NCBI GenBank assembly: GCA_000993405.1
Contig: LBWB01000007.1
Location: forward strand, 8,383-72,382
DNA from: Candidatus Woesebacteria bacterium GW2011_GWB1_39_12
GTDB lineage: Bacteria > Patescibacteriota > Microgenomatia > UBA8517
Direction: 5' to 3'
DNA: 64,000 nucleotides
Each line of letters opens with the position of its first letter. The first letter of the stretch is position 1. The position numbers and the translations under genes were made by a program. Of the stretch, positions 27,011 through 64,000 are shown in pieces. The notes beneath the pieces were generated by a model. That model had not been told where the DNA came from. It was given only the letters and a program-made list of their open reading frames with translations, and searched no databases.

Positions 27011-27023
27011 GGTCTGTTCGCCC

Positions 27024-27068
<45 letters not shown>

Positions 27069-27630: not shown

Positions 27631-27662
<32 letters not shown>

Positions 27663-27847
27663 GCCCCCCCTAAGATTAGGACTCGTTATTAGATCCCTAG
27701 AAGAATACTAGGTTGTTCGACAGGCGGTGGAAGTCGCGTAAGCGATTAAGCCTACCTTGTACGAATCGATCGATTTCAGACTTACTTACTCCTAATGAAG
27801 TATTGTATAAGCTCACTTTATGGTCTTTAGATGAGAAGCAAAGCTTT

Positions 27848-27966
27848 GGTCTGGTGATGATAGCGGTGCGGAACTACCTGATCCCATTCCGAACTCAGTC
27901 GTCAAACACACCTGCGGCGACGATAGTAAGCGGGCAACTGTTTGCGAAAATAGCACGTCGCCAGGC
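27848..27966 (+). rRNA. rrf: 5S rRNA
   Basis: ggtctggtgatgatagcggtgcggaactacctgatcccattccgaactcagtcgtcaaacac...gcacgtcgccagg resembles bacterial 5S. Confidence 0.65.
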
Positions 27967-38108: not shown

Positions 38109-38180
38109 GGGCCGATAGGTAAACGGTATACCGTACCCTTCGCATGGGTAAGTTCTGGGTTCAATTCCCAGCCGGTCCAC
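38109..38180 (+). tRNA. tRNA-Ala (anticodon CGC)
   Basis: Acceptor GGGCCGA/CCGGTCC with G3:U70, D-arm GGTA-AACGGTA-TACC, anticodon stem TACCC/GGGTA with loop TTCGCAT, T-arm CTGGGTTCAATTCCCAG. Confidence 0.65.
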
Positions 38181-39722: not shown

Positions 39723-39742
39723 GGCAGTAGCGCTCTAATAAA

Positions 39743-39911
39743 TTTAACCTTCAACATTTTTTTCTTGTTCATTATCTTTTGAAGCTTTTTTAAATTCTTT
39801 GACTGCGTCTGCCAAACCTTTAAAAAGTTCCGGGATTTTCTTGCCTCCGAAGAGCAAAATGACTACGGCTGCGATAATAAGTAGTTCAGTAGTTCCTAGT
39901 GATCGAAACAT
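39743..39911 (-). CDS. tatA: Twin-arginine translocase subunit TatA/E; shorter than 60 aa and absent from the ORF track
   Basis: My own translation gives [55 protein letters not shown], a TM helix followed by FGxKKxPE. Coordinates are within about 2 nt. Confidence 0.6.
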
Positions 39912-39917
39912 TTTCTA

Positions 39918-40121
39918 TTATGTCACCTCCTCATTTTTTTTACTTGGTTGATCGTCTTCAATAGCTTCGGTAAAGTTCTTTTTTATTTTTTTGATCTCTT
40001 TGAGACTTTGCCCTGCAGTTCTACCAAACGAGATAAATGCTTTTGCACCAAAAAGTAATATCAAAATTGAAACAAGAATAATTATCTCTGTCGTACTGAT
40101 ATTTTTAAGAAAGCCTGGCAT
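39918..40121 (-). CDS. Second TatA/E-like protein
   Basis: IIILVSILILLFGAKAFISFGRTAGQSLKEIKK has TatA-like topology. Confidence 0.55.
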   Translation of the reverse strand: MPGFLKNISTTEIIILVSILILLFGAKAFISFGRTAGQSLKEIKKIKKNFTEAIEDDQPSKKNEEVT

Positions 40122-40179: not shown

Positions 40180-40380
40180 CTATACTTCTGTCATTGACGC
40201 TGCCAGCCAAAAGGATCCGTTATAATATTCCAGACTGTTTGTTTGTGAGTTAAAGCCGATTGTTCCGCGCTTGGGTTTTTTCGGCCTAGCGTCTGTTTCC
40301 CAGGAGCTAATTCTTGGTAAACCAAGCATTAGTGATAAACCTTGGCCTATGTCCATTAAAACTGTGGATTTACTTTCCAT
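40180..40380 (-). CDS. Small protein consisting of the conserved C-terminal module shared with the giant repeat protein
   Basis: ISSWETDARPKKPKRGTIGFNSQTNSLEYYNGSFWL aligns with [36 protein letters not shown] at the end of the 40594..44532 protein. Confidence 0.5.
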   Translation of the reverse strand: MESKSTVLMDIGQGLSLMLGLPRISSWETDARPKKPKRGTIGFNSQTNSLEYYNGSFWLAASMTEV

Positions 40381-40593: not shown

Positions 40594-43500
40594 TTATATT
40601 TTTTTCATTGGTAGAGTCAGCCAGCTAGATCCGTTCCAAACTTCAATATTATTTGTTTGAAGATTAAATCCAAACGTTCCTGTTTTTGGGTTTTTAGGTC
40701 TGCCTGAGATATTCCAAGAGGGGATTCGTTTCTGGATATTAGACACCGTTGCACCCAAAACCTTTTTATTGTTTGTATTAAAAATCGTATGGTTTCTGAA
40801 AAGAATAGGCGGTTCTGGAATAGGAGCAACATAAGCTTCCGATGGACTTACCGAAGGTGAGACGCTAAAACTTGCTGAGTATATGATAGCAGGAGAAGGG
40901 GAAGGAGATGCAGAGGGGCCGCTTGGGGCCACGGAGGGACTAGCTGATGGTGAAAGAGAAGCTGAACCACTTTCTCCACCTAGAGAAGGACTGGCAGACG
41001 GTGATAATGATCCGGAAGGACTCCCGCTGGCTGACGGACTAAGAGACAGAGATGGGGAGACCGAAGCGCTGATGCTTTCTGACGGTGAGAAAGAGGCCGA
41101 TGGTGAAAGAGAGGCGGATGGTGAAACCGAAGGACTTCCTGATCCAGAAGGACTAAATGAGGCACTTGGTGAAATAGATGCCGACGGCGAGACAGAAGGG
41201 CTAAGGCTTGCTGATGGACTCAAGGAAGCCGAGGGTGATAATGATGCCGACGGCGAGACAGACGGCGAGGCAGATGCACTGGGTGAAAGAGAGGGAGAGA
41301 CGGATGCAGAAGGAGAAATTGACGCACTTCCGGCTTGTGAAGGGCTTACCGATGCGCTGGGAGAAATTGACGGTGACACTGACGCAGACGGACTAACCGA
41401 TGCACTGGGAGAAACAGAAGGAGAAACACTGGCCGATGGCGATTCCGATGGACTTACACTTGCTGATGGAGAAAGAGATGCCGATGGGCTAACAGAAGCA
41501 CTTGGACTAACCGACGGAGAAACTGAAGCAGACGGGCTGACACTAGGACTGATGCTTGCGCTCGGACTGACAGATGCAGACGGACTGGCGCTTGCGCTTG
41601 GAGAGACCGAAGCACTTGGTGAGAGTGAAGCGGACGGTGACATACTTGCTGATGGTGAGACAGAGGCGGATGGACTAATGGATGCACTTGGACTAAGCGA
41701 TGGCGATACGGATGCAGAAGGAGAAACAGAAGGCGATTCCGATGCCGACGGACTCAAACTAACCGAGGGAGAAAGAGAAGGAGAAACAGAAGCTGATGGT
41801 GATACCGATGGACTGAGACTTGCAGAAGGTGAGACTGATTCTGAAGGTGATACCGATGCTGACGGACTTACTGATGCACTAGGCGAGACAGATGCAGACG
41901 GACTCAAAGATGCCGAAGGTGATACTGATGCCGATGGCGATACAGATGCACTAGGACTGACTGATGGAGACACAGAGGCTGAGGGTGAAACGGAAGGACT
42001 TACACTTGCAGATGGGCTAACAGATTCACTCGGACTGACAGAAGCCGACGGAGAAATAGACGCAGACGGCGAGACCGAGGCCGATGGAGAAAGTGATGCC
42101 GATGGTGAAACGGAGGCAGAAGGTGAAAGAGACGCAGACGGGCTAACAGATAGTGAAACCGACGCGCTTTCTGCTTGAGAGGGACTCACAGATGCGCTGG
42201 GGCTGATACTCGCAGACGGCGAGATGGATGCGCTGGGTGACACTGATGCCGACGGGCTAAGCGATGCAGAAGGTGATAAAGATGCTGATGGACTGATGCT
42301 AGCGGAAGGACTAAGTGACGCAGAGGGGGAAACTGATGGAGAAACAGAAGCAGATGGAGACACTGATGGACTTTCACTTGCAGATGGAGAGAGTGATGCC
42401 GATGGTGACACCGAAGCAGAAGGACTAACACTTGCCGAAGGACTGACAGATGCGCTAGGTGAAAGAGAACCTGAGGGGCTGGCACTTGCAGACGGCGAGA
42501 CCGATGCAGATGGACTAATCGATGCACTTGGACTAACCGACGGAGAAATAGATGCTGATGGTGACACCGATGGACTAAGACTGGCAGAAGGAGAGACTGA
42601 TTCAGATGGCGATACTGATGCGGAGGGAGAAACACTGGCTGATGGGCTAAGAGATGCACTAGGCGAGACAGATGCAGACGGGCTAACTGATTCACTTGGT
42701 GACACAGAGGCTGATGGAGAAAGGGATGCACTTGGACTTAAAGAGGGAGAAACAGATGCCGATGGGCTGACAGAAGGCGATTCCGATGCCGACGGACTTA
42801 AAGAGGCCGAAGGGCTGACAGAAGCCGATGGAGATACGGATGCAGATGGAGAAAGACTAGCAGATGGAGACACTGATGCAGATGGACTGACACTTGCCGA
42901 CGGGCTGACTGATTCACTAGGCGAAACTGAAGCTGATGGACTAACAGACCCGCTGGGACTTAGAGAAGGAGAAATAGAGGCAGACGGTGAGACTGATGGA
43001 CTTTCACTCGCAGAAGGACTCAAAGAAGCCGATGGAGAAACTGAGGCAGAAGGCGAAACAGAAGCTGATGGGCTAAGACTCGCAGAAGGACTGACACTTG
43101 CAGATGGGCTAACTGATTCACTTGGTGACACCGACGCAGATGGACTCAAACTTGCAGAAGGACTGAGAGATGGAGAAACAGATGCACTTGGCGAGACAGA
43201 AGGACTCTCACTAGCTGATGGAGAGAGTGAGGCTGATGGTGATACTGATGCGCTAGGCGAGACAGACTCCGACGGTGAAAGAGAAGCAGAAGGAGAAACT
43301 GAAGGGCTAATAGATGCCGATGGTGAAAAAGAAGGTGACTCCGATGCCGACGGACTTAAAGAGGCCGAAGGGCTGACCGATGCCGATGGGCTTACCGAAG
43401 CAGATGGACTAAGGCTAGCGGATGGACTAACCGATGCACTAGGTGATATCGATGCAGACGGACTTAGACTTGCAGAAGGACTGACAGATGGAGACATCGA

Positions 43501-44532
43501 GGCAGAAGGTGAAACAGAAGGACTTTCACTGGCAGATGGGGAGAGTGAGGCAGAAGGAGAGACAGAAGCTGATGGTGACACTGATGCGCTAGGCGAGACA
43601 GACTCCGACGGTGAAAGAGAAGCACTAGGGCTTACTGATGGCGAAATAGAAGCAGATGGAGATATAGAAGGACTTTCACTAGCAGAAGGAGAGAGTGAGG
43701 CAGAAGGACTGAGAGATGCAGATGGACTTAAAGAAGCTGATGGACTGACAGAGGCCGATGGTGACAAAGAAGCACTGGGTGATACCGATTCCGATGGCGA
43801 TACCGAAGCGCTAGGTGATAGTGATGCTGAGGGAGAAAGCGACGCGCTGGGACTCAAAGATGCAGATGGGGAAATACTGGCAGATCCTTGCACCGGTTTA
43901 AGCGCGATGACAACTTCAACAAGTGGGCCGGCAGAGCTACTGCGTACCCAAGATATACTTTGGTTAGCAGGGGGAGTCACGGGTATTGTACTCATTCCCG
44001 AGAAGGTTGTTGCACCTGCAACCGTTACTCGCTCTGTTTGGCCTGCTGTTGCAGTAGAAGTGAGTGTTCCTCCTGTACTGGCCTTCGCGATCATGGCGTC
44101 AACAACCCATGCGTTATCTGTGATTGTTTGCAAGCTGACCGGGGTTGCCGAAGAAGTAGCAGGATTTATAGCTAAAAATGTACTTGCTTCCGGCGCTTGC
44201 TGTGCCACACCGCTTAAGGCGATTGCTCCGACTGAAGTCTCGGTATTAGTATCTGTACTTGCAAAAGTTGCCTGGACGGTGTATGTACCGGTACCAGGCA
44301 ACTGGGCAGACAGCATATAGAAAATGCCGGCGGCATTTACTCCGGCAGCGTTATTGGCACTTTCGGCCGAAGTCATTGCTACACCGTTGAAATTTATGCC
44401 AGTTGGAGGGTTAAAGCCTGCCGCATAGGCAACCACCATATCGTACGCGGAGCCAATCGTGATATCTACACTCGGGCTGGCTGAAGCAGAGGCTGCTGCT
44501 ATTCCTGCCGCTGCGACGAATGCAATTGCCAT
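40594..44532 (-). CDS. Giant (1312 aa) secreted or surface protein made of about 150 tandem SPSAS[VLIE] hexapeptide repeats, with distinct N- and C-terminal domains
   Basis: Continuous minus-strand ORF with a signal-like N-terminus ([18 protein letters not shown]), a non-repetitive domain of about 200 aa, an 18-nt periodic repeat core, and a unique C-terminal module. The plus-strand ORFs are mirror artefacts. Confidence 0.75.
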
Positions 44533-44533: not shown

Positions 44534-45700
44534 TTAGCGCCCTCCTCCCGCTAAACGGATACTTAGCTTGAGAGAATCTACATAGTATTGATTTTCTTCT
44601 ATTGCTCCAACAATATGTAAAAGCAGCATATTCTTATTCATAAGCTGGGCAACCATATTTCCGAACTCGGTTAACGCCCTTTGGCGTTTTTTGGATCCTT
44701 TCTTTAGGTTTAATAATTTCTTAAGATGTATGTTAATTTGTGCATTCAGGTTAAATGCCTCTGATTGAACTTCTATATATTGCTTTTTAAATGAAAACCG
44801 TGCACCATCAAATTCCCCCACTGAAAATACAGATGCTCCGGCCGTTCCTTCCATTGCGCGGGCCTTCTCCAAGTATCTTTGACTCTCTCTGATCCTTCCA
44901 TTAAGAATTCCGGCTTGTTCACTTCTTTTGTTGAGTTCGTTTAGCTCCTTTTGAATTTCAACACTTGTATCAGCCTTTAAAAGACCAGACAGACTTTCCA
45001 GAAAGATTTTTGCTTCTTGGTTGTAGCGATCCTTATCGTCACCCAGTTCGGTAGTTAATTCGGCAATCCTTTTCTCGATCTTGGTTGTAGGTAATGCCAC
45101 ATCTCCTTCGTAGCCGTACATTGGGGAATCAAAAATTGAATTGTAAAGAATTATTTTTACTCCGAGTGCGGTAAGGTAACCGATCCAAAAGCCGAAACCA
45201 GTTAACTGGTATCGGTATTCGCTTTCCGTCTCCAACTCAATCCCGTGAATCTCAACGCGCTCATAGCGTTTCCCTTGTTTCCACATGTCAGCAACCAGCG
45301 CAAATGCATAGTCCGGTGAAGAACTAAAAAATTTAAAGTTTTTTTCTTCCCCCTTAACGACCACACTGACGTTTTCGGAAAGTGAGAGCACACGCTCAAT
45401 AGGGTATTTTTTTGATTTCGGGATATCAGTGTAGTGCTTTTGCATGTAAACAGTTGGTGTTATACCGGATTTAAGCCAAAGGTAATGCTCTTCGTCGCTT
45501 CTATTTTTTGGATTTTTCCAAATTGCCTCATGGTGCAATTGGAAGACTGTATCGCACTTTGGATATTTCAGTTCGCCATTTTCTTTCTTTGCATTTGGGG
45601 CTTCATTAAACATCCAGATATCGCAGTCGGTTCTTGACCAGTCGAACGTTTTCAATCCGTTCGGGTGCGTACCCATTATTACGAGCGTTTTTTTCATCAC
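44534..45700 (-). CDS. Hypothetical protein in an operon with the giant repeat protein; C-terminal coiled coil
   Basis: 388-aa ORF that overlaps the GIY-YIG gene in ATGA fashion and ends 2 nt before the start of the repeat protein. Confidence 0.5.
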
Positions 45701-45978
45701 GTTAGAAATAGAAAACGTTTCATACGGTTTTTAAGATATCTTCTACCCATTCCAGTCTTGAGGTATTTTTCTCGAGCAACCCCGTCTAATTTATTTTTAC
45801 ATCCTTCAAAATAGATTATTTCGAATGGTCCTCGGCCTTTGGTGTATCTGGACAATCCTTTCTGATGTTCCTGTAAACGTTTTCGAAGATTGTTAGTGCA
45901 ACCAATATACCACTTTCCAGATCTAGTACCTCTTAAAACATAAACATATTGATAATTGAAATTTCTAACGTGATTCAT
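45697..45978 (-). CDS. GIY-YIG nuclease-domain small protein; second copy in the window
   Basis: YVYVLRGTRSGKWYIGCTNNLRKRLQEHQKG. Confidence 0.65.
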   Translation of the reverse strand: MNHVRNFNYQYVYVLRGTRSGKWYIGCTNNLRKRLQEHQKGLSRYTKGRGPFEIIYFEGCKNKLDGVAREKYLKTGMGRRYLKNRMKRFLFLT

Positions 45979-53729: not shown

Positions 53730-55592
53730 TTAATTAACTCTTTTGTCTTTCCCCAGCCAAGTCAGACTTGGCCAGCCGGGGATATCCGAATCGCTTTCAA
53801 TCCAGCCTTTGAGAAGATTCTGGTTTCGAAATTCGCCTTTCTTCCACCTTTGACCGGTAACATTGCCTGTGTGGCGGATATCTATGTTGGGATATTTGGA
53901 TTTCCAGGTTCCCAGCTTAAACACGTTTTTCCATTTGATCCGATTATGGGTCATCGGCTCAAAACCCATTTTGCGGCTGAAACCTTCTTTTTGAATCAGT
54001 TCGTAGCGTTCTCGGAAATGGGTTAAAAGTTCCTCGCGATATCCGCAAAGGCCGGAAAGCTGATTAACGTCATAATGAAGCGCATGACCGTCGGTAGTTC
54101 TTAAGAACCAGACATTCTGATTATAGTAAAAAGTATTTTTATCCTGCGGAGTAAAGTCAAAATGGGTAGGGTGATAGAGAACATCGTGTTCACAAAAGAA
54201 GATGATATCAGCGGTACTATGTTCTAAAGCAGCCACAATTTGTTTAAACATTGCAGGATAGCCTTTTTTTAAAGAAGGAAAGTGGATGTTTTTAACGCCA
54301 AAATCCATTTTCTTGAGAGTTGCACTGACAATCGGGACACTTTTTTCCTGACTGATCTTGAGAAGCTGATCCCGAACAGGCTTAGCAATTTTTTCATCAA
54401 GTGTACAATCGCTGTAATAGATCATTCCCTTGTTTGGTAAATCACTCTCTACTTCGCTGACTACTGGTTCGGGAGCTTCGGGTAGGGCGGCATAATCCCC
54501 AGCAAAATATATGATACCTTCAATTGGACCATTCTTATTAGGTTCACTTTCAGCAGGATTAATAATTATTTCTTTCGATGAAAATCTGAAAGTATTTGCC
54601 TTTAGTTTTTTTAGGTCTTCCTCAGTCCAGCCCTTGACCGGCCAGAATTTTTCGACTAACCACGAAAGGGGACGCACCTGTTGAGGCCAGTTGTTATTAA
54701 AGAAAAGATTGCGGGCATAAGATTTGGCTTTTTCCTGATCCCTTCCTGAAATTGGGTAGGGGAAGCCAAAATCACCGCCTTGAGTGCGAAACATATGGGC
54801 ATACCAAGTTTTTTTGTTTACCATAACACTTCCTCCGGAGAGCCATGTTTTTACAGCAACTTCAATTCCCTGTGAACCCCAACTACCAAAATTCTCGTCA
54901 CAAACACCAAGTTCCCAATATTTGTTTCGTGTCAGCATCCAGCATGAACCCTGAAGAGACATGGTTTCGGTTATTTCACCTTGCCCTTCAGGACGCTTGG
55001 TCCAATCACCGAAATACTGGAAGTGGGGTTCAGAGTCGAAACAATAAGAAACGCTGTTAGGACTTTTCTTAGGTTGCCAGAGAATGTCCCTGACCGTTTC
55101 TTTTCCGCAATCCCGACATGGGCCGCTTGGTCCCTGGTACCTGTGGTGACCGTCAGGACAAATCCAGTCAAAAGCGTGAAGATTTTTCATCAAGGGAGCC
55201 ATCGTCCAATCGTCGTGCATCTCCTTCATCATTTTTATGTCAAACCCCTTATCAAATGCACAATGTGCATCACACTTCATCAAATATTTTGCCTTTGACA
55301 GTTTAGCCGCCTGATTGGTTGCTGCCCGCTGTCCTATTGACTCGGGGTTATAAATTACTGTTACTCGCTCATGCTGGGGGATGGGAGGATCTGTCCAGTA
55401 GCCGTCCATAACTGCAATAATTTCGGTATTGCCTTCGATATTATTTAGGATATCTTCTATTGTTCTTGCCAGGAACATTTCGTTTCTGGCTGGTATGAGA
55501 ATACTTAAATCGTAATTTGCCCCGTTAGAAATCCGACCCACCTTTGGTGTTTCGGCATTAATTTCAACTGTATTTCTAACGGGGTTTGCCAT
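53730..55592 (-). CDS. Two-domain glycosyltransferase-like protein: an N-terminal GT-A domain with a DxH (CDAHC) motif plus a C-terminal domain related to the 58499 and 59273 paralogues
   Basis: The N-terminus (LSILIPARNE...IAVMDGYW...CDAHCAF) is paralogous to 55675..56550. The C-terminal ADIIFFCEHDVLYHPTHF matches EADFLYPPEYF and DDDTLYVAEHF in the 235-aa paralogues. Confidence 0.5.
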   Translation of the reverse strand: MANPVRNTVEINAETPKVGRISNGANYDLSILIPARNEMFLARTIEDILNNIEGNTEIIAVMDGYWTDPPIPQHERVTVIYNPESIGQRAATNQAAKLSKAKYLMKCDAHCAFDKGFDIKMMKEMHDDWTMAPLMKNLHAFDWICPDGHHRYQGPSGPCRDCGKETVRDILWQPKKSPNSVSYCFDSEPHFQYFGDWTKRPEGQGEITETMSLQGSCWMLTRNKYWELGVCDENFGSWGSQGIEVAVKTWLSGGSVMVNKKTWYAHMFRTQGGDFGFPYPISGRDQEKAKSYARNLFFNNNWPQQVRPLSWLVEKFWPVKGWTEEDLKKLKANTFRFSSKEIIINPAESEPNKNGPIEGIIYFAGDYAALPEAPEPVVSEVESDLPNKGMIYYSDCTLDEKIAKPVRDQLLKISQEKSVPIVSATLKKMDFGVKNIHFPSLKKGYPAMFKQIVAALEHSTADIIFFCEHDVLYHPTHFDFTPQDKNTFYYNQNVWFLRTTDGHALHYDVNQLSGLCGYREELLTHFRERYELIQKEGFSRKMGFEPMTHNRIKWKNVFKLGTWKSKYPNIDIRHTGNVTGQRWKKGEFRNQNLLKGWIESDSDIPGWPSLTWLGKDKRVN

Positions 55593-55674
55593 AAAGATAA
55601 ATTATAGGATTTTCATAAAATTCTAACTTGTAAGGTAATACCTTGCAAGTATATTAGACCTGATAACATAAATA

Positions 55675-56550
55675 CTATAAGCTGTTCTTTTCGCCGACCC
55701 AGGTAGGAACCGGCCAAAATCTCTTGACTAGCCAGGAAAGGGGAAGCGTTTGTTTATGCCAACCCTTATTTTTCCACTTATCAACCGCTGCCAGTGCCTT
55801 TGGTTGGTCATCCCTACTCAAACTATATCCTCGTCCATAGTCGCTACTTTTGTGCCAGTGAGCATACCAAGTATTCTTATTGACCACAACACGCCCTCCC
55901 GATAGCCAGCACTTTAAGCCAATTTCCTGAAATTCATTCCAAAAAGTTCCATAAGTTTTTTCGTCCATAAGCTCAAGCTCATTGAAGTAGTCGTGAGTCA
56001 TAAACCAGACACTTCCTTGATTACTCATGGTTTCATCAATTAATTTCTTCTTAAGTTCAGGATCTTTGTTCTTTTCATTCCAGACGACTCCGTGCAGGTC
56101 CTGAGATAAATACATATAGTCAATGGGATACTTTGGATTGTCAACCAACTCCCATTTTTCAGGGTCCAGTGCATATCTTCTGGGGACGACAACCCAGTTA
56201 TCCGAACAGTCTGCGGCTAATACTGTATCAAATCCATTAGCAAACATACAATGTGCATCAGTTTTCATTAAAAATTTGCCTTTTGCGATGACAGCTCCTG
56301 CATTGATTGCTGCTCGCATTCCAAGGGGTTTTCCGCGGTGAATAATTTTTAGGCGGGTATCTTCAATTAATTGGGGAGTAGGCCAGTAACCGTCGAGGAT
56401 AACGATGACTTCAATATCTCCTTCGGCTTTTGTCAATAAGTCAGTAACGGTTTTTTGAAGAAACAACTCATTTCGGGCGGGGACGATTACACTTAAATCA
56501 CAAGTTGCCATAACACACCCATATTTAGCGTAAATTGAAGTAAAAAGCAA
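55675..56550 (-). CDS. GT-A fold glycosyltransferase (GT2/GT27-like) with a ppGalNAc-T-like DAHC motif
   Basis: LSVIVPARNE, VILDGYW and KTDAHCMF. Confidence 0.5.
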   Translation of the reverse strand: MLFTSIYAKYGCVMATCDLSVIVPARNELFLQKTVTDLLTKAEGDIEVIVILDGYWPTPQLIEDTRLKIIHRGKPLGMRAAINAGAVIAKGKFLMKTDAHCMFANGFDTVLAADCSDNWVVVPRRYALDPEKWELVDNPKYPIDYMYLSQDLHGVVWNEKNKDPELKKKLIDETMSNQGSVWFMTHDYFNELELMDEKTYGTFWNEFQEIGLKCWLSGGRVVVNKNTWYAHWHKSSDYGRGYSLSRDDQPKALAAVDKWKNKGWHKQTLPLSWLVKRFWPVPTWVGEKNSL

Positions 56551-56564
56551 CCTATAGAAAAAGT

Positions 56565-56867
56565 CTATTTTGCAGAAATTTTTGCTTGGAGTTCTCTCTC
56601 AACCCTTTCCGCTAAAAATATTTTCATTAGAGATTGATATGGAACATCGCGGGAATTGGCAATTTCTTTTATTCTCATAAGTAGATATGCAGGAAGTCTT
56701 AAAGATATTGTTTCGGTTGTTGGTTTGAGTTTGGATAGATCCAATTCCACTGGTACAAATTGATCTAAATAGTCAGTTAGGTCGTGATTTGCCCAAAATT
56801 CACGCTCTTCGTCTTCAGTTCTGAACTTTGGGATTTGTTTTGAGATTTTAGCTTTATTCTTTGGCAT
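56565..56867 (-). CDS. brnA: BrnA-family antitoxin (CopG/RHH-like)
   Basis: EDEEREFWANHDLTDYLD matches the BrnA signature. It overlaps the upstream brnT. Confidence 0.6.
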   Translation of the reverse strand: MPKNKAKISKQIPKFRTEDEEREFWANHDLTDYLDQFVPVELDLSKLKPTTETISLRLPAYLLMRIKEIANSRDVPYQSLMKIFLAERVERELQAKISAK

Positions 56868-57144
56868 AATATTTCCTTTCTTTTTTACTTTGATTTCTAG
56901 CTGAGATTATTCTAATATTGCTATTTCTTATAGTAAAGACTATATGTAATTTTCTCTTCTGACTTGTCATACCTAGGGCAATATATCTTTCTTCTGACTG
57001 CGAATGTTTTTTATCCCTAAGCAGGCTTAAGGGTTTATTTAGGAAAGCCTCTTCAGCTTCTTTGTAATGAACTTTATGCTTTTGCCAATTTTTGTCGATA
57101 TTACCTTTGTTCCAATCAAATGATAATGGAACAGGTAATTTCAT
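56854..57144 (-). CDS. brnT: BrnT-family toxin (DUF497 ribonuclease toxin)
   Basis: FDWNKGNIDKNWQKHKVHYKEAEEAF...RYIALGMTSQKRKLHIVFTIRNSNIRIISARNQSKKERKYY matches the DUF497 pattern. Confidence 0.6.
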   Translation of the reverse strand: MKLPVPLSFDWNKGNIDKNWQKHKVHYKEAEEAFLNKPLSLLRDKKHSQSEERYIALGMTSQKRKLHIVFTIRNSNIRIISARNQSKKERKYYAKE

Positions 57145-57364
57145 ATATTCTTAAGTATATGATGGTAATATACATTTGTCAAGAGATCAAATGAATTATT
57201 TTCTTCAGTATTTAGCGTAAATTGAATTAAAAAACAACAAAGAAGTTGCACACGAGGCAATTCTATTTTTTGACAAAATACCAGCAGGGTTGTCTATCGT
57301 CTCTTGAGACAGCGTCCCAATCTTGCTCAGTTGTGTATAAGCGGTAGTCTTTTTTCTTTTAATA

Positions 57365-58021
57365 TCAGCTTTTTACCCACATCCAGGATCTTGTTGCGTC
57401 TCTTACCATACCATTTCCTTTTGCTTTTAATCCCAAGATAAACCAAGGTCTAATATTTTTTTCTTTGATAAATCTTTGTGTTGCATCTATAACGTTACAA
57501 ACAAAATCCTTTCTTCCTCTTCTTGCAGGTTGTATATAATCGTGCCCCGATAAGATGCCTCCGACTCTAAGCTTTTTATACCACTCAGTTATATCTTGGG
57601 TGATATATGGTTCGCTGTGGTTGGCGTCTATATAGACAAAATCCAAAGATTCGTTGGGAAAATCTCGGACGGCATCCATGCTGAGTTTTCGGATTTCTTT
57701 ATAGTTTGGGTAGGGGGCAATAACCTCCTTGAATTTTCTATATAGTTTTTTTAACGTTGCCGCGTCCACGTATTCGATACCGCCCTCGTAAGGAATCCAC
57801 GGATCTATGCCGTAAAATTGCATCTGAGGATTAGTTTTTGCCAGTATGACCCCATACTCTCCGGCTCCGACACCTATCTCCACGCCTGTTTTGAAATTAA
57901 GCTCATTTAACCACTCGGGTATGTTATTTCTGCCAACGTTCGGTATTTCAATTGGCATTAATGACCCTTCGTCATAAATGATTTTAATTTTTTTTAATAT
58001 GTATTCAAGAGTATTAGTCAT
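57365..58021 (-). CDS. TylF/MycF-type class I SAM-dependent O-methyltransferase
   Basis: GVEIGVGAGEYGV...YIDANHSEPYITQDI...GGILSGHDY. Paralogue of 60849..61556. Confidence 0.6.
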   Translation of the reverse strand: MTNTLEYILKKIKIIYDEGSLMPIEIPNVGRNNIPEWLNELNFKTGVEIGVGAGEYGVILAKTNPQMQFYGIDPWIPYEGGIEYVDAATLKKLYRKFKEVIAPYPNYKEIRKLSMDAVRDFPNESLDFVYIDANHSEPYITQDITEWYKKLRVGGILSGHDYIQPARRGRKDFVCNVIDATQRFIKEKNIRPWFILGLKAKGNGMVRDATRSWMWVKS

Positions 58022-58544
58022 TTTTTTTAAGCCATAATAAATCCTTCTTATTGCTTAAAACAGTTGTATTGGGCACAGCTTTTGTATAATCATACCTATA
58101 TTTAAATAGAGGGAATATTTCATCAATATGATAATAATCATATTCTTCACTATCATGGATAATGACGTAGTTAGTATTATTCGCAATTTTTTTAATGACA
58201 GACGCTCTCATTTTCCGCTCGTTATCGACAAAGACCACATCCCACTTTCGATTAAAATCGAAGTCATCCCAGTTTTTGATTAAATGAATTTCGTGTTTTT
58301 CAGATGCAAAGCGGCGATTGAGTTGAATGAATTCCTCATTACTATCGAGTGAAATTAGTTTTCGTCCTTGGTCAAAGCATAACCAGTGCATAATAGGAGT
58401 ACTGAATGGACCCATACCTACTTCAAGAACCGTACCTTTGGTAACCGATAAGACTTTCACTAATACTGGAAAATGTGAACAGTATCTCGGATTAAATTTC
58501 ATAATCCAAACATCGCTTTTCTCATTTCTACTGCTGTCCCCCAA
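58014..58544 (-). CDS. Class I SAM-dependent methyltransferase-like protein
   Basis: LEVGMGPFSTPIMHW...VVFVDNE... is a Rossmann-type MTase motif I / post-I. Confidence 0.4.
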   Translation of the reverse strand: MGDSSRNEKSDVWIMKFNPRYCSHFPVLVKVLSVTKGTVLEVGMGPFSTPIMHWLCFDQGRKLISLDSNEEFIQLNRRFASEKHEIHLIKNWDDFDFNRKWDVVFVDNERKMRASVIKKIANNTNYVIIHDSEEYDYYHIDEIFPLFKYRYDYTKAVPNTTVLSNKKDLLWLKKND

Positions 58545-59203
58545 TAGGGCAAGGAAGGAACGGAATGAGTCGAGATTGCGGAGTATTTATGCAAGGATTG
58601 ACCAGTTTTAAAAGTTACACAGGCGTTATTTCCAGTAAACATCTCAAAACTAATATTTTTGTATGGATCAAGCTTGCGGAAGTGCGGAGAGTCTTCTTCG
58701 AACCACTCCGGGCAGGCTTTAAGGGCATTTTCCAATACGGAAATTAAATACTTGCGACCGGCTATCTGGGCTCCCTCTGAATATTGTTTTGGGAAAAATC
58801 CCCAATGGTACTTATACATAAGTCTTATATTGCCATATCGGTAAATTTTTTCTTCCTCTTTTGGTAGAAATGAAAAGTATTCAGGTGGATATAAAAAATC
58901 AGCTTCGGCATTAGCAACAAATGTTGTTTTTGCGGCTTTTGCTCCGATTAAAAGTTGTCTGTAAAGTGTAAGGTTACTTGGATAATGAACCCCAACACAA
59001 ATATTTCTCCCCAATTTAATAGGTTTATGGGAGACGCTTATAATAGGTATGTTTTTCGCAGTTTCGAGAAGTCTTTGCCGAACTTTATTTTCAAAAGACT
59101 TTTCTTCCCGGTTACACGTATAGTAGATAATTGTAAGATCTTCTCTTTGCATTTTATTAATGCTGTAAATGCCCAAAGAGGAAACCAAATTACTGATGCG
59201 CAA
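58499..59203 (-). CDS. Putative glycosyltransferase-like protein (paralogue family A)
   Basis: About 235 aa. Paralogous to 59273..59992 and to the C-terminal domain of 53730..55592, with the conserved acidic-x-D-x-LY motif. Confidence 0.45.
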   Translation of the reverse strand: MRISNLVSSLGIYSINKMQREDLTIIYYTCNREEKSFENKVRQRLLETAKNIPIISVSHKPIKLGRNICVGVHYPSNLTLYRQLLIGAKAAKTTFVANAEADFLYPPEYFSFLPKEEEKIYRYGNIRLMYKYHWGFFPKQYSEGAQIAGRKYLISVLENALKACPEWFEEDSPHFRKLDPYKNISFEMFTGNNACVTFKTGQSLHKYSAISTHSVPSLPYWGTAVEMRKAMFGL

Positions 59204-59272
59204 GCTGATATCTTAATTCAGGAAGCACAGGAAATAATTAACCACATTTCATTATAGTTCCTCTTTTAGCCT

Positions 59273-59992
59273 TTAGCTTTGATTTCTAACGGGAGACTCA
59301 TCCCAGTACTTCTTTCTTAAGCTTATGGCACTTCCGTAAGGTTCTAAATAATCAGTTTGGTTATCCGGATCAAGGGGGCCAAATCTTTTTCTTTTGCCGT
59401 TAAGTGAGCCTCTGTATTCGAAAGAGATTAGGGGAAATTTTGTAGAAAACTTTTCTACTTTTGCGTTTGGAATACCAAATTCAATATCGAATTTTCCTGG
59501 TTCACCCCAGTGATGGTCATCACGGGGTTTGGTCGGATACATTTTGAACCGAGCGGAGAGGTTTTCTATGAGGGCTTTGGTTGGGGAAATATGACAAAAC
59601 ATTCCAGAAAGCTCTTCTTTCGGGTGCCAGAAAAGTTTATCTCCACCGATCCAGGCATTTGTATTCCAAGTAAATGTGTCTAGCCCGCTTGGGCGATGTT
59701 CAAAATGCTCAGCTACATATAATGTATCATCGTCGATATGGGTAATGTAGTCAGTTTTTACCTTGAGTGCTCCAAGAAGAATTTGTTTGAAAAAGTTGTA
59801 GCAAGATTTGCCGATTTCGCCAACGCAGATATTAGTCCCAAAATCTATAGGTTTTTGGGAGACGCTAATAGTAGGGAATTTAGCTTGCGTAACTTCAAGC
59901 AGGTTCTGTCTGATTTTCTTGGCAGTAATATCTGGAATTACGTTCGCTGTGCAATAAAGTAAAGTTAAATCTACCATAGCGCTAATTTCCAA
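59273..59992 (-). CDS. Putative glycosyltransferase-like protein (paralogue family A)
   Basis: See 58499..59203. Contains THIDDDTLYVAEHFEH. Confidence 0.45.
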   Translation of the reverse strand: MEISAMVDLTLLYCTANVIPDITAKKIRQNLLEVTQAKFPTISVSQKPIDFGTNICVGEIGKSCYNFFKQILLGALKVKTDYITHIDDDTLYVAEHFEHRPSGLDTFTWNTNAWIGGDKLFWHPKEELSGMFCHISPTKALIENLSARFKMYPTKPRDDHHWGEPGKFDIEFGIPNAKVEKFSTKFPLISFEYRGSLNGKRKRFGPLDPDNQTDYLEPYGSAISLRKKYWDESPVRNQS

Positions 59993-60840
59993 AATCCTCT
60001 ACATATTTTTTCCCAGTCGAAATTTTTTTTAACATAGTCTTTTTCAGATTTGCTAACTGGTCTAGCACCTTTCTGGAATAGTTTAATCAGGTTTTCTACT
60101 TTTTTTTTATCCTCGGGAATATACTCGGCAAATTCATTAAACCATTTGCGGTAGTGTGGTTTGTCGAAACAAATCGGCCTGGCTCCGCAAAGAAGTCCTT
60201 CCAAAACAGGTAATTCAAAGCCCTCAATACGTCTTAGTCCGGATACAAACTGACACTGGCTGTAGTATTGGGCAAGAGTCGTATCATTCATACCGTTGCT
60301 GTAAAACACTTCTTTGCTACTCTCTCCGGTACCAAGTTGAAACACAGTTTTTTTGACTGATCTTGCAGCCTCAAGGATTTCATTTTTGCATTCTCTGTTC
60401 CATCTTTTTCCTGTACCTGTACCGGCAATAATAAATCTGCGTTCGGCTTTAGTTTCTTTGAAAATTTCAGCGTCAACCCCCAAAGGTGCCCAGTAAAATT
60501 TAAAATTGGGAGTATTCCCGTCCTCGCGGCAAAGCTCAGGAAGATTATAATAACTCCAGGTCAGTTCTGCCTTTTCCCAAATGGGTAGCCAGTCGAGGGT
60601 GTTAGGATTTGGAGTGCTTCTTACCGAGAGTTGTATAATGGCGTAGCGTTTTTTTTGTTCTATTAATTTTTGAGTGTACCAAAGCGTTTTTCTTCGTCGA
60701 CCATAGTCGCAGACAACAACAAAATCAGCTCCTTCGGGATTTTCAGTAAGTGTGTGCTCTAATGATAAATATTTTTTCAGCGCATTAGTTATTCTTGATA
60801 TTGCGTTATCCGGCAGAAATTTTTCGACGTAAACGTTCAT
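59971..60840 (-). CDS. Hypothetical protein, paralogue family B (possible glycosyltransferase)
   Basis: 289 aa, clearly paralogous to 61541..62407: YTPLGADAAIFKP / YWAPLGVDAEIFKE; FEGFELPAAEGFLCGARPIMFDRPHYRAWFNEFA / IEGFELPVLEGLLCGARPICFDKPHYRKWFNEFA. Confidence 0.5.
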   Translation of the reverse strand: MNVYVEKFLPDNAISRITNALKKYLSLEHTLTENPEGADFVVVCDYGRRRKTLWYTQKLIEQKKRYAIIQLSVRSTPNPNTLDWLPIWEKAELTWSYYNLPELCREDGNTPNFKFYWAPLGVDAEIFKETKAERRFIIAGTGTGKRWNRECKNEILEAARSVKKTVFQLGTGESSKEVFYSNGMNDTTLAQYYSQCQFVSGLRRIEGFELPVLEGLLCGARPICFDKPHYRKWFNEFAEYIPEDKKKVENLIKLFQKGARPVSKSEKDYVKKNFDWEKICRGFWKLALW

Positions 60841-60848
60841 ATTTATAA

Positions 60849-61556
60849 TTAAAATGAATGCGGTCGCAGTATAATTTCAGAATTCTTAACAAACATAAAG
60901 GAGCGAGGCCTGTCTCTTACTTCGCCGTCAACAACACTTTTTCTTCCCAAAATAAACCAGGGTGAGATATTGTAGGCCGCAACATAACCATGAAGTGCAT
61001 CAACAACATGGCTTTGATAGCCGGGATCAGTTTTTTTGATGTAGTCATGTCCGGCTACTATTCCGCCGGGGCGTACTCTTTTGGACCACTCAACTAAGTC
61101 GTGTGCTACATGACTGAATTCGTGACTGGCATCAATATAGACAAAATCGAGGGATTCGTATTTAAAACTTTTGACCGCATCAGCGCTTAATTTTTTTATG
61201 AGTTTGCAATTGTATTTGGCGAGTCTTTTTTTGGCTTCTTTGTAAATCTTGTCCATTGTCTTTTGGTTAGTATGATCCCGGTAGCCATTGTATACCTGCC
61301 AAGCGTCGACAGAAAATAATCTTAGTTTGGGATTGGAACGGAGTAGAATTTCTGAGTATTCTCCTCGTTCTATGCCGACTTCAGTTCCTATTGTAAAGCC
61401 TAATTCGTTAAAGAGTTTAGCCAATTCCACACGGCCAAAGTTAGGAATTTCAATAGGGGATTTTGTTGTCAAGTCTAGATTAAATTTATTGGCAATGTGG
61501 TCCAATGTTTTGTCTATTTCATTCATGATATTTTTCGATGTCATAGTCGTTCCCAA
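60849..61556 (-). CDS. TylF/MycF-type class I SAM-dependent O-methyltransferase
   Basis: GTEVGIERGEYSE...YIDASHEFSHVAHDL...GGIVAGHDY. Paralogue of 57365..58021. Confidence 0.6.
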   Translation of the reverse strand: MGTTMTSKNIMNEIDKTLDHIANKFNLDLTTKSPIEIPNFGRVELAKLFNELGFTIGTEVGIERGEYSEILLRSNPKLRLFSVDAWQVYNGYRDHTNQKTMDKIYKEAKKRLAKYNCKLIKKLSADAVKSFKYESLDFVYIDASHEFSHVAHDLVEWSKRVRPGGIVAGHDYIKKTDPGYQSHVVDALHGYVAAYNISPWFILGRKSVVDGEVRDRPRSFMFVKNSEIILRPHSF

Positions 61557-62407
61557 AAACCGGATGCGATTCGCTCCCAGTTAAAACGTTCTTTAGCAAG
61601 ATTAATTTCGGATGGGGTTATGGGTCTTGCACCATTACGAAAAATGACTTCCAGAGAGTCAATGACTTCAGCCCGGGAGTTTTCCGGAATAAATACGGCA
61701 AATTCATTAAACCAAGCTCGGTAGTGAGGTCGATCAAACATTATTGGCCGAGCCCCGCAGAGAAACCCCTCGGCAGCTGGCAGTTCGAAACCCTCAAATC
61801 TCCGTAATCCGGATACGAATTCGCAGGCGCTGTAATGTTCGGCGAGTAGGTTGTCACTAATTCCTTTGCTGCATTCTACATCTTCCCCCAAGTGGAGTTC
61901 GCGACCGACGTGGAAAACCGGCCTACCAACTTTTCTGGCGGCCTTCACCGCTTCGCGTACACCCTCGGTTAAATAATCCGGGCCGCTTGTGGCTATAATA
62001 AATTTCTTCTCTACATTTGTAGGTTTAAATATAGCAGCATCAGCCCCAAGCGGTGTGTAATAAAAATTAAAGTTAGCCAGTTCTTGGTCTTCACGGCAGA
62101 GTACGGGTAGATTTAGGAAACTAACTACAACCTCAGCTTTTTGCCATAAAGGAAGCCAGCTTTCAGTCGAAGGCTTGAGAGTGCGACGCAAAGCGTGTTG
62201 TAAAACTGCGAATTTTTTACCTTCATTTGCCAAATGTTCAGCCAAGCTTAACACCCGGTCGTGGCGTCCGACTACATGGATGATTACCAAGTCTGCGTTG
62301 TCCCTGTTATCAACTATCTGAATAGATTCGGGTGCATATAGGGTAAATGCGTTATTAATCCGTGCCAGTGCCCGGTCGTCGGGTGGAGTTTCGAAATAGA
62401 CTCTCAT
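61541..62407 (-). CDS. Hypothetical protein, paralogue family B (possible glycosyltransferase)
   Basis: See 59971..60840. Confidence 0.5.
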   Translation of the reverse strand: MRVYFETPPDDRALARINNAFTLYAPESIQIVDNRDNADLVIIHVVGRHDRVLSLAEHLANEGKKFAVLQHALRRTLKPSTESWLPLWQKAEVVVSFLNLPVLCREDQELANFNFYYTPLGADAAIFKPTNVEKKFIIATSGPDYLTEGVREAVKAARKVGRPVFHVGRELHLGEDVECSKGISDNLLAEHYSACEFVSGLRRFEGFELPAAEGFLCGARPIMFDRPHYRAWFNEFAVFIPENSRAEVIDSLEVIFRNGARPITPSEINLAKERFNWERIASGFWERL

Positions 62408-63121
62408 TTAATTTTTCTTCCTTAAAACCAAATGATAACTTTTTCGTTCATTACGGACCCACTGGTTGTCAAAATTTGCTTCGGTTTGGCTATCGCGACG
62501 GAAACCGAGTTTGGAAATTTTATCTAGCCACCAGTTTAAGTCCTCATGGATCCGGTGCATGTCAACCTGATACTTCGGATTTATGGATTTTTTGTTGGCA
62601 ATACTTATCACAAACATTCCGTCTGTCTTCAGGTGATTGGCAACATTGGTAAAAAGTTGTTCTAGGTCAGGTTCGGGGATGTGTTCCATAACTTCCCAGG
62701 CCGTGATAACGTCAAATTGATAAAGCTTTTCATCACCTCGATGGATTATAAATGGTTTGGTAATGTCGCAGGTAAAAAGGTTATCGGGTATTATTGACCA
62801 ATCACCCCAAGCGGTTTTTTGGTATCGATCAGTACCTTCGAGTCCTATCGCTATGCGGCCTTCATCAATACAATCTTTGATAAAACCACCACCGCCACAT
62901 CCCAGGTCTAATACAGAGGCGGTTTTAGGTAGACGAGCATTAAACTTAGAATTACGAGAGTTGTATTTGGTGTGCATTGTCGGCATTGGATAGCGATACT
63001 CGTATGAATCTAGTGCTAAGGGGTAATTTGTCTTTAAGTAGAATTTCATCGCGTTAGAGATCCGACTCGCTTTAGGCGTGTCGGCAAAAATTTCTAATTT
63101 TTTATCTCTAACGGGATTCAT
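62408..63121 (-). CDS. Class I SAM-dependent methyltransferase
   Basis: Motif I VLDLGCGGGGF and motif II region ...FDVITAWEVMEHI. Confidence 0.65.
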   Translation of the reverse strand: MNPVRDKKLEIFADTPKASRISNAMKFYLKTNYPLALDSYEYRYPMPTMHTKYNSRNSKFNARLPKTASVLDLGCGGGGFIKDCIDEGRIAIGLEGTDRYQKTAWGDWSIIPDNLFTCDITKPFIIHRGDEKLYQFDVITAWEVMEHIPEPDLEQLFTNVANHLKTDGMFVISIANKKSINPKYQVDMHRIHEDLNWWLDKISKLGFRRDSQTEANFDNQWVRNERKSYHLVLRKKN

Positions 63122-63125
63122 TTAT

Positions 63126-63842
63126 TTATATTACCTTGAGCATTGTACCCTCCTTGATCATCTTGACTCCATCATTCCATCTACCTAGAGCGATTTTTAC
63201 TCTTGCGCGAAGTCCGTTTTCTGTGTACCTGGCAGTATTGATATATAGTCGCTCTAATGAAGTGTTTCTGGAAATGTAGCGGTAGTGAAGTAGTAGTATC
63301 TTTGCCCAGGAATGACTAGCACCTTTTGGAAGATAAGTAATATGCTTTCCCATATTAAACCTTACATTTATCTCCGGGTTAAAGATGATCATTTTGTCGT
63401 ATAAATGGGACCTAACCCCGAAGTAGCATTCTTCATAAATCTGCCCTTTTGTTGTGGGAAAGTTTTCCGAAAACATTGTCATTCCTGAGGCCTTTATTGC
63501 TTTTATACCCCTTTCTTGTTGTTGCGATAATACGCCGATAATATCTTTGTTGTAGAGAAATTCGTCACCGTCTGGGCACATTACCCAGTTTGCAACACCC
63601 CGGCTGTATTTTTTGTAAAACTTATAGAAGCAGGCATTATGGTATTTACTGAAATCTCCCCTGAAGTTATAACTCAATAACGTGACTTTGGGATTTTTCT
63701 TTGCAATCTCAATGGTTTTGTCTGTGCTGCCGTCATCAGTGATAAATATCCTGTCTGCAAAAGTTGAGTAGTAACGCAAGAAATAGGGGAGTAGACGTTC
63801 CTCATTTTTCATTACACTATAGACGTGTATTATCATTGACAT
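63126..63842 (-). CDS. GT-A fold (family 2-like) glycosyltransferase
   Basis: IIHVYSVMKNEERLLPYFLRYYSTFADRIFITDDGSTDKT has the GT2 N-terminal pattern with a DDG motif. Confidence 0.5.
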   Translation of the reverse strand: MSMIIHVYSVMKNEERLLPYFLRYYSTFADRIFITDDGSTDKTIEIAKKNPKVTLLSYNFRGDFSKYHNACFYKFYKKYSRGVANWVMCPDGDEFLYNKDIIGVLSQQQERGIKAIKASGMTMFSENFPTTKGQIYEECYFGVRSHLYDKMIIFNPEINVRFNMGKHITYLPKGASHSWAKILLLHYRYISRNTSLERLYINTARYTENGLRARVKIALGRWNDGVKMIKEGTMLKVI

Positions 63843-64000
63843 ATTGCTATTGCTACACCTTTATCATCAGGCTTACATGGGTATATGATTCCCAGATCGT
63901 TTTTTTGGATAAACATCTCGGTGTTTGAGAAATGCTTTTTTAAGGCTTCGGAAAACTCGTTCAGTCTATATTCGAATAAATGGAACTTGCTTCTTGCAAA

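Follow-up and report, generated by a model that had tools for sequence, protein, structure and literature searches.

The GT27 polypeptide GalNAc-transferases (ppGalNAc-Ts) of eukaryotes initiate mucin-type O-glycosylation, and chloroviruses and mimiviruses glycosylate their capsids or fibrils with methylated sugars. Bacteria of the Candidate Phyla Radiation (CPR, Patescibacteria) make up a large share of bacterial diversity and live attached to other cells, and to our knowledge almost nothing is known of their surface glycoconjugates. Both the Fap1-type serine-rich repeat proteins (SRRPs) and the serine-aspartate repeat (SDR) glycoproteins are built of dipeptide repeats, with glycosyltransferase genes flanking the substrate gene (PMC5063993; PMC3794999), and the staphylococcal SDR proteins are glycosylated by SdgA and SdgB (PMC3794999). 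Mycobacteriophage capsid and tail-tube proteins carry C-terminal glycans, as far as the secondary account of that work goes (Freeman et al. 2023 as cited in PMC12619734). Here we analyze a 64,000-nucleotide stretch of the ultra-small groundwater bacterium Candidatus Woesebacteria bacterium GW2011_GWB1_39_12 (the window; contig LBWB01000007.1, positions 8,383 to 72,382), which holds a cluster of glycosyltransferase and methyltransferase genes at window positions 53730-63842 and, 9 kb away, the gene for a giant serine-repeat protein. An initial annotation of this DNA had proposed that the cluster O-glycosylates the giant protein and methylates the attached sugars. We find that the cluster is an enlarged, chromosomal version of a conserved set of soluble enzymes of the cytoplasm (the module), and that this module occurs together with serine-rich (Ser-rich) proteins in several CPR classes and also in phages. 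A literature search returned no paper that describes the module or that ties Ser-rich proteins of CPR bacteria or phages to glycosyltransferases.

The cluster encodes GT27-like glycosyltransferases

The initial annotation had singled out two GT-A enzymes with an Asp-x-His (DxH) arrangement as similar to ppGalNAc-Ts. One is a stand-alone glycosyltransferase of 278 aa that carries the motif TDAHC (55675-56511, minus strand). The other is the N-terminal part of a bifunctional 620-aa enzyme (53730-55592, minus strand) in which a DxH domain carrying CDAHC is fused to a C-terminal GT-A domain, carrying EHDVLY, of a second family that we call Family A. Both DxH domains match Pfam Glycos_transf_2 and are 37% identical to each other over 304 aa (blastp, E 3e-61), and the family of 55675 has more than 2000 homologues, one of which (P0001) is 100% identical to it. 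When 53730 was searched as a single query against the PDB, ppGalNAc-transferases were the sole matches. The CDAHC and TDAHC motifs pair in alignment with DSHCE of ppGalNAc-T2, and the 53730 segment FGSWGSQGIEVAVKTWLSGGSVMVNKKTWYAHMFR aligned to the Gal/GalNAc-T motif region (WGGENxE...) of a ppGalNAc-T, a motif that is degenerate in most members of the DxH family (YGTFxNEFQE).

A profile of the DxH family (24 members, 275 positions) gave a similar picture. GT27 enzymes accounted for 16 of the 18 PDB matches down to E 2e-5 and aligned over positions ~4-250 of the 275 (E 9e-11 to 2e-5), while ordinary GT2 enzymes, including the other two of the 18, aligned over the first ~100 residues only. GT27 enzymes are therefore the only PDB matches that span the full catalytic domain. 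In addition, D85, A86, H87 and a later histidine, H218 (the Mn2+ site), are invariant across all 24 members. The likeness to ppGalNAc-Ts proposed earlier is thus supported. Because the DxH proteins, at 270-330 aa, contain no ricin-type lectin domain, no membrane anchor and no further Pfam domain, and because their sole Pfam assignment is the generic GT2 entry PF00535, under which GT2 and GT27 both fall, we term them GT27-like on grounds of sequence rather than naming them as members of GT27.

The DxH domain of 53730 also has a ~40-aa insert that is not present in its paralogues (window 54980-55190, minus strand; residues ~135-205), with a Cys/His pattern, CPDGHH...CRDCG, that has the look of a zinc ribbon. 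Separately, several DxH glycosyltransferases are fused to methyltransferases. A 489-aa paralogue from a near-identical population contig (L006, 4231-5700) has a C-terminal methyltransferase-like domain, and two homologues of ~480-500 aa (P0032 and P0084) carry Methyltransf_11/25-type Pfam domains beside GT2. Such fusions support a coupling of glycosyl transfer with methylation.

The remaining enzymes are soluble and largely paralogous

The 53730-63842 segment holds paralogous soluble glycosyltransferases and methyltransferases, and blastp recovered every paralogue pair from which the cluster had been said to be built. Family A consists of 58499-59203 (motif EADFLY), 59273-59977 (DDDTLY, 234 aa), both on the minus strand, and the C-terminal domain of 53730, exactly the grouping proposed at the outset. 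The first two are 43% identical over 94 aa (E 5e-19), and the 53730 domain matches 59273 at E 2e-13 and 58499 at E 6e-9. Sequence searches with Family A gave no match in Pfam, NCBIfam, PHROG or PDB and structure prediction was therefore needed, by which the family is modelled as a GT-A fold that has no Pfam entry.

Family B, likewise as first grouped, comprises two 288-aa proteins encoded on the minus strand at 59971-60840 and 61541-62407 that are 46% identical (E 5e-94). The former has an EX7E motif and a weak match to Pfam Glycos_transf_1. A Family B profile found the mannosyltransferase ManT (7qsg) as its best PDB match at E 1e-5 and 15% identity, with other GT4 enzymes scoring alike, and an AlphaFold2 model of 61541 (pLDDT 93.8) gave Foldseek matches to GT4 enzymes at ~1e-9. 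As modelled, Family B is a shortened GT4-type GT-B enzyme with an EX7E motif. Elsewhere in the module it is scarce, with seven open reading frames (ORFs) in the 75 CPR genome loci and three in the 80 phage loci described below.

The two proteins that had been called TylF-type O-methyltransferases, at 57365-58021 and 60849-61544 (231 aa; both minus strand), are indeed paralogues (43% identity, E 4e-62). The TylF label did not hold up, as searches returned Methyltransf_24 (E 2e-12 and 1e-14, respectively), which is not the TylF family itself, and otherwise a weak NanM-like match only. Two further methyltransferases had also been named. The first, at 62408-63121 (minus strand), is a class-I enzyme of the Methyltransf_23 family (E 2e-14) with a hairpin at the 5' end of its gene. 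The second, a small conserved module protein of 162 aa at 58014-58502 (minus strand), has no Pfam match. It belongs to a family of 160-200 aa proteins with a VLELGxGxxST motif, with 35 homologous ORFs in the genome loci and homologues in 30 of the phage loci, and the profile of this family weakly matches O-methyltransferase family 3 (E 0.012); it is probably a minimal S-adenosylmethionine (SAM)-methyltransferase-like protein. Finally, the 236-aa protein at 63126-63836 (minus strand), read from the start as a GT2 enzyme, matches Glyco_tranf_2_4 (E 1e-14).

No hydrophobic 19-mer above a Kyte-Doolittle value of 1.6, as expected of a transmembrane (TM) segment, was present in the glycosyltransferases and methyltransferases of the cluster. 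Genes for a flippase, polymerase, ABC exporter or transporter, ligase or initiating phosphoglycosyl transferase were not found in the cluster, in the nine-gene extension described next or among the scanned ORFs of the window. This agrees with the earlier remark that no Wzx/Wzy/flippase-type export genes are apparent, and places no export apparatus nearby.

The cluster is larger than the window

The window segment contains 13 co-directional ORFs, all on the minus strand. The initial annotation had strand, direction and coordinates right, but its count of ten was too low, and it did not mention a BrnT/BrnA pair. It also ended the cluster too early, at 63842: on near-identical population contigs (loci L005 and L006) the cluster runs on upstream of position 64000 for ~9 more genes. 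In order these encode a Methyltransf_11 protein, a 196-aa methyltransferase-like protein, a Methyltransf_24 protein, a DxH glycosyltransferase (301 aa), a second Methyltransf_24 protein, a DxH glycosyltransferase (304 aa), the 489-aa DxH glycosyltransferase fused to a methyltransferase-like domain, a GIY-YIG protein and a DxH glycosyltransferase of 328 aa. By comparison with these contigs, the 3' end of a 192-aa Methyltransf_11/25 gene is what the window itself retains at 63833-64000 (minus strand). All four additional GT2 genes of the extension are DxH paralogues (36-50% identity). The whole cluster thus has about 20 enzyme genes over ~20 kb, with 12 glycosyltransferase domains (six DxH, three Family A, two Family B and one GT2_4) and six to eight methyltransferase or methyltransferase-like domains (four Methyltransf_24, one Methyltransf_23 and one Methyltransf_11, plus the 196-aa and 58014-like proteins). 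True starts are shorter than the ORFs for 55675 (278 aa), 58014 (162 aa), 59273 (234 aa), 60849 (231 aa) and 63126 (236 aa). In exact-protein look-ups a 238-aa form of 63126 and the giant protein had no database record.

Upstream, the cluster is bordered by a SIS_2 and a dCache gene on the other strand, plus a conserved pair encoding an SH3_3/TM protein and a 214-aa TM protein. This pair lies outside the window (L006 1-1357) and has homologues in ~25 of the 75 genome loci. The first TM protein ends in an SH3_3 domain and weakly matches Y1_Tnp, and the second (the 'KRAFLK' protein) has an internal Tat-like KRAFLKIIGAAGISFF segment. In one locus (L055) the pair is placed after the Ser-rich gene instead of at the upstream edge of the module.

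The module co-occurs with serine-rich proteins in CPR genomes

The (SPSASx)n protein reported near the cluster is real. It is encoded at 40594-44532 (minus strand), is 1312 aa long and is the proposed substrate for glycosylation. An N-terminal domain of ~200 aa is followed by a strict (S-x)n array of 1025 aa and a C-terminal domain of ~75 aa. The array has Ser at every second residue, with 501 Ser and no Ser-Ser pairs; alternation is unbroken over runs of 570, 278 and 116 residues, and the probability of Ser at i+2 given Ser at i is 0.99. The gene draws on all six Ser codons and contains few DNA repeats, the commonest 15-mers recurring only three times, which indicates that the pattern is kept by selection on the protein and does not stem from recent duplication. 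The C-terminal domain matches several PHROGs of unassigned function and recurs in Ser-rich proteins of one relative (L055) and one phage locus (L146). A 66-aa ORF at 40180-40380 (minus strand) duplicates this domain (RPKKPKRGTIGFNSQTNSLEYYNGSFW). A search for homology between the N-terminal domain and the Ser-rich proteins of relatives gave no significant matches, and these N-terminal domains are variable, with LamG-like, discoidin-like and other types.

We then asked how often the module and such proteins are found together, by scanning species-representative genomes with the DxH profile. This yielded 75 loci spread over many CPR classes, with Woesebacteria, WWE3, Paceibacterota and Microgenomates represented, and an ORF was counted as Ser-rich when some 200-aa window reached at least 28% Ser. 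The module core consists of a DxH GT-A transferase, a Methyltransf_24 protein and a fused DxH plus Family-A enzyme, usually together with a stand-alone Family-A glycosyltransferase and a 58014-like protein. There are 17 Ser-rich ORFs in these loci, 15 of them at 47% Ser or more. All 17 are on the glycosyltransferase strand and 14 lie downstream. The fused gene, orthologous to 53730, is the last enzyme gene of the module. For 23 copies the available sequence reaches 1.5 kb or further downstream, and of these nine have a co-directional (SPSxSx)n ORF within 1.5 kb and two more have one within 7 kb; loci L011, L062 and L064 are further cases of a fused gene followed by a Ser-rich ORF. The controls, 278 kb in total, comprised 114 kb of DNA taken without selection and 164 kb from the distal ends of loci, and neither set contained a Ser-rich ORF. 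The predicted co-occurrence with Ser-rich repeat proteins is therefore strong, and it is directional and extends over several CPR classes as well as phages. Note that the labels of these records, viral or cellular as well as taxonomic, are unreliable. One 44,615-bp contig appears twice, as part of a Paceibacterota metagenome-assembled genome (L026) and as an IMG/VR viral genome (L168), and among L014-L088 many loci of CPR-type content stand under titles such as 'uncultured Gammaproteobacteria'.

Phages carry the module in their head-gene region

Phage sharing of the module, in the region of the head genes, had not been foreseen by the initial annotation. The DxH profile matched more than 572 places in IMG/VR, and the counts given here cover 80 viral loci. 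One contig (L169/L089) encodes a 371-aa protein of the major head protein family phrog_267 (E 6e-19), with terminase-like and portal-sized genes upstream, indicating that it is a real phage. A phrog_267-type head protein is present in 44 of the 80 loci and a Ser-rich ORF in 67, with 81 of 82 such ORFs sharing the direction of the glycosyltransferase genes. The order major head protein, Ser-rich protein, module is seen in 41 of the 80, and a second Ser-rich ORF lies just past the module in 19 of 38. The phage Ser-rich proteins have a small N-terminal domain followed by (SPSxSx)n. Some of these domains are of a conserved head-adjacent type, and others we take to be discoidin-like or LamG-like from their appearance.

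The location of glycosyltransferase genes among virion structural genes applies to the phage relatives (41/80) and not to the window, where no homologue of a major capsid, portal or terminase protein was found. A prophage origin of the window was rejected on this account. The head module is likewise present in only two of the 75 genome loci. The window also holds a ribosomal RNA (rRNA) operon, whose 23S gene contains a group I intron, and genes for Rho, an S1-domain protein and a RadA-like protein, and since these stand in the same window the cluster is chromosomal.

A proposed O-glycosylation system and its alternatives

The GT27 likeness of the DxH enzymes, the missing local export genes and the co-occurrence with Ser-rich proteins all favor the hypothesis of protein O-glycosylation and sugar methylation with which we started, and none of the outcomes that the initial annotation had named as refuting it was seen. 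On this genomic support we consider the best reading of the locus, with a probability of roughly 55%, to be a cytoplasmic system dedicated to O-glycosylating (S-x)n fibre proteins and methylating the attached sugars. The protein acceptor, initiating enzyme, sugars, O-methylation and surface location in the following scheme are suggested by gene context and homology. The module would O-link a methylated oligosaccharide to the Ser residues of (S-x)n stalks, its target in the window being the 1312-aa protein at 40594-44532. A DxH enzyme would transfer the first sugar from a nucleotide sugar to the Ser hydroxyl by means of its Mn2+ site (Asp-x-His plus the later His), and the initiator would most likely be the fused DxH enzyme, which is kept next to the substrate gene. 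The remaining GT-A and GT-B paralogues may then lengthen the glycan while SAM-dependent methyltransferases O-methylate individual sugars, and the product would be a bottle-brush fibre, mucin-like and resistant to proteases. The module of related phages might decorate the Ser-rich proteins encoded after the head protein, as well as Ser-rich fibres with lectin-like heads.

Export of the cellular proteins may involve the twin-arginine translocation (Tat) pathway. Genes for TatC (Pfam, E 2e-36) and two TatA-like proteins (38961-40121, minus strand) lie directly downstream of the giant gene in the order TatA/TatA/TatC and in the same direction. TatC lies within 10 kb of a DxH glycosyltransferase in 18 of the 75 genome loci, in at least three arrangements, with one locus (L085) sharing the order of the window, and no TatC was found in the 80 phage loci. 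The giant protein has no twin-arginine motif, and the Tat genes as an export route for a cytoplasmically glycosylated giant protein are therefore only suggestive.

Several observations weigh against such a system. GT27 similarity does not by itself prove a peptide acceptor. A distance of 9 kb separates the giant gene from the cluster, with two-component-system genes on the other strand in between, an 8-kb block that is not present in the close relatives L011 and L016. About half of the fused glycosyltransferase genes of relatives precede other genes, which code for T/S/A/G-rich proteins, Gly/Ser-rich proteins or further enzymes. Furthermore, most Ser-rich proteins have no obvious signal peptide, which leaves the surface display of the cellular ones unexplained.

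The alternative that survives best, which we nevertheless regard as unlikely, is that the cluster uses a lipid carrier to make a methylated polysaccharide of the cell wall or surface, with initiator, exporter and ligase encoded elsewhere and the Ser-rich protein either a mere neighbour or a substrate of an oligosaccharyltransferase outside the membrane. Mixtures of GT2, GT4 and methyltransferase genes are indeed typical of O-antigen and S-layer glycan loci, JGI names homologues 'glycosyltransferase involved in cell wall biosynthesis', and a SIS_2 (GmhA-like) gene stands at the cluster border. Relatives also contribute genes for DegT, epimerase, UDP-sugar dehydrogenase and cytidylyltransferase, and in one of them (L013) PMT_2 and Wzy_C-TPR genes lie no more than 8 kb away. 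Set against this are the phosphoglycosyl transferase, flippase, ABC transporter and ligase genes that were not found in the ~20-kb cluster or the scanned window ORFs, and the strand-specific adjacency to Ser-rich ORFs that is kept across lineages. The position of the module in phage head-gene regions beside Ser-rich structural-type proteins is also hard to reconcile with a lipid carrier, as no lipid-linked export is expected there.

The phage distribution raises a further explanation that we hold to be somewhat more doubtful, namely that the cluster is a decaying or domesticated virion-glycosylation cassette of a CPR phage that no longer serves the cell or serves only a phage-like particle. 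Besides the abundance of DxH matches in IMG/VR, the matches of the giant C-terminal domain to PHROGs and to the phage Ser-rich protein of L146 fit this view, as do the 66-aa remnant copy of that domain, the tRNA gene at 38109-38179 that adjoins the giant/Tat block, and the GIY-YIG gene and toxin-antitoxin pair of the region. Against this view, the cluster is intact and expanded, with 12 glycosyltransferase domains and long uninterrupted ORFs. It shares a 144.8-kb contig with the rRNA operon and housekeeping genes, the chromosomal arrangement with the upstream SH3_3/TM pair recurs across CPR classes, and phage head genes are missing from the window and from all but two of the genome loci.

It is very improbable that the cluster makes a polymethylated polysaccharide inside the cell, as mycobacteria do with methylmannose polysaccharide by means of alternating glycosyl- and methyltransferases: 7qsg is the best solved relative of Family B, glycosyltransferase and methyltransferase genes alternate between 59971 and 63121 and the enzymes are all soluble, but the 7qsg match is a generic GT4 one equalled by many GT4 enzymes, other copies of the module seldom include Family B, an MmpH-like hydrolase was not found, and the Ser-rich linkage and phage head-gene position are left unexplained.

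Each of these explanations fits the conserved Ser-rich linkage less well than dedicated O-glycosylation of (S-x)n proteins does. More tentatively, one may extend the proposal to a hitherto undescribed mucin-like system shared by CPR bacteria and their phages, in which prokaryotic relatives of ppGalNAc-Ts would initiate on (S-x)n stalks in the cytoplasm and a methylated glycan would then be assembled by GT-A and minimal methyltransferase families that are both new. Cells would export the finished, folded fibres through the adjacent Tat translocase, and phages would mount them on their capsids as glycan-coated head fibres. If the proposed reading is right, the cluster would be the first candidate for a dedicated protein O-glycosylation system in CPR bacteria, composed of enzyme families of which no member has been characterised and among which are bacterial and phage relatives of the animal enzymes that initiate mucin glycosylation. 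The same cassette would be used by phages, probably for coating virion fibres. It would thus provide a handle on host attachment, on phage recognition and on the evolutionary origin of GT27.

Other features of the locus

The gene pair overlooked in the initial count, at 56565-57144 (minus strand), encodes a BrnA CopG-type antitoxin (Pfam CopG_antitoxin, E 9e-29) and a BrnT toxin (BrnT_toxin, E 7e-23). It lies between the DxH glycosyltransferase and the remaining cluster, is found in all near-identical contigs, and is a type II toxin-antitoxin pair inserted in the cluster that probably stands outside the pathway. Proteins of 93 aa with a GIY-YIG domain recur in or beside the module (window 45697-45978, minus strand; L006 3950-4231; L070 20337-20660; L088 4237-4587). 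The two copies of the window's organism are clearly related in sequence, and these small genes may be mobile endonuclease genes.

The stop codon of the gene at 44534-45700 (minus strand) abuts the start of the giant gene. It codes for a conserved 388-aa protein that has 781 representative homologues, with an N-terminal alpha/beta-like domain and a coiled-coil tail, and that gave no match in Pfam or PDB, profile search included. A guess from its N-terminal motif that it is a Maf- or sialyltransferase-like initiating enzyme was dropped, as even the profile found no such match.

A hairpin element of ~60-100 nt lies 5-9 nt past the ATG of 53730, of 62408 and of the gene for the 328-aa DxH glycosyltransferase (window 55520-55585 and 63052-63116, both minus strand; L006 2977-3075). 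The outer stem, CCCCGTTAGAnnn...nnnTCTAACGGGG, shows the compensatory changes AAT/ATT, GAT/ATC and ACG/CGT, the inner stems covary too, and the in-frame translation reads 'NPVR...ISNG'. The CCCGTTAGA/TCTAACGGG hairpin core, with covarying extensions, is found in 10 other IMG/VR contigs, and an Rfam search with the element returned no significant match.

The rRNA operon of the window (14853-27966, plus strand) is split, with 7.3 kb from 16S to 23S. The spacer holds two tRNA genes on the plus strand and, on the opposite strand, a TrwB/VirD4-like coupling-protein gene and a 228-aa ORF. The 23S gene extends over 4.0 kb, including the group I intron.

Comparison with described glycosylation systems

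The methylmannose polysaccharide pathway (ManT, MeT1 and MeT3) resembles the cluster in that soluble GT4-type transferases work together with SAM-dependent methyltransferases. It differs in that the GT4 similarity is generic, in that the module core is a DxH GT-A enzyme with Methyltransf_24 and not Family B, and in the Ser-rich linkage.

Likeness to phage virion glycosylation is found in the phage relatives, where the glycosyltransferase and methyltransferase module stands beside the major head protein and Ser-rich structural-type genes, which implies that the virus encodes enzymes to glycosylate parts of its virion in the cytoplasm. The targets proposed here are (SPSxSx)n proteins in their own right and not short C-terminal tails of the capsid protein, the enzyme families differ, and the window copy is chromosomal and without head genes.

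With the GT27 ppGalNAc-Ts the DxH enzymes share the DxH GT-A domain, a Gal/GalNAc-T-type second half (W/Y-G...E...W..GG...H) and the His that is the third Mn2+ ligand, and their presumed acceptors are likewise Ser-rich low-complexity stalks. In contrast to the eukaryotic enzymes they have neither the ricin-type lectin domain nor the membrane anchor and are 270-330 aa long as opposed to ~550, the profile similarity is only ~E 1e-10, and Pfam sees a generic GT2 domain.

The SRRP systems of streptococci and staphylococci (Fap1 and GspB, with Gtf1/2, Gtf3, dGT1, GalT2 and accessory Sec) are alike in three respects. The substrate is a giant protein with a dipeptide (S-x)n stalk, a set of soluble cytoplasmic glycosyltransferases that includes a bifunctional one is encoded beside the substrate gene, and translocase genes lie on the other side of the substrate, just as the window runs from glycosyltransferases to the giant gene and then to TatA/TatA/TatC. 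There are also clear differences. The window has no GtfA/GtfB pair, PDB Gtf1 (4pqg) matching Family B at E 0.11, SecA2, SecY2 and Asp were not found among its scanned ORFs, and neither an LPXTG motif nor a long signal peptide is present in the giant protein. The window enzymes are instead DxH GT-A (GT27-like) proteins, a new GT-A family, short GT4-like proteins and many methyltransferases, the host is a CPR bacterium, and the module is common to phages. The cluster would work in a way similar to the SRRP, SdgAB and mycobacteriophage systems; because the enzymes and export genes differ, it does not belong to any of the three. Overall, dedicated glycosylation of serine-repeat proteins is known, and what is new here is a set of uncharacterised enzyme families and their distribution across cells and phages.

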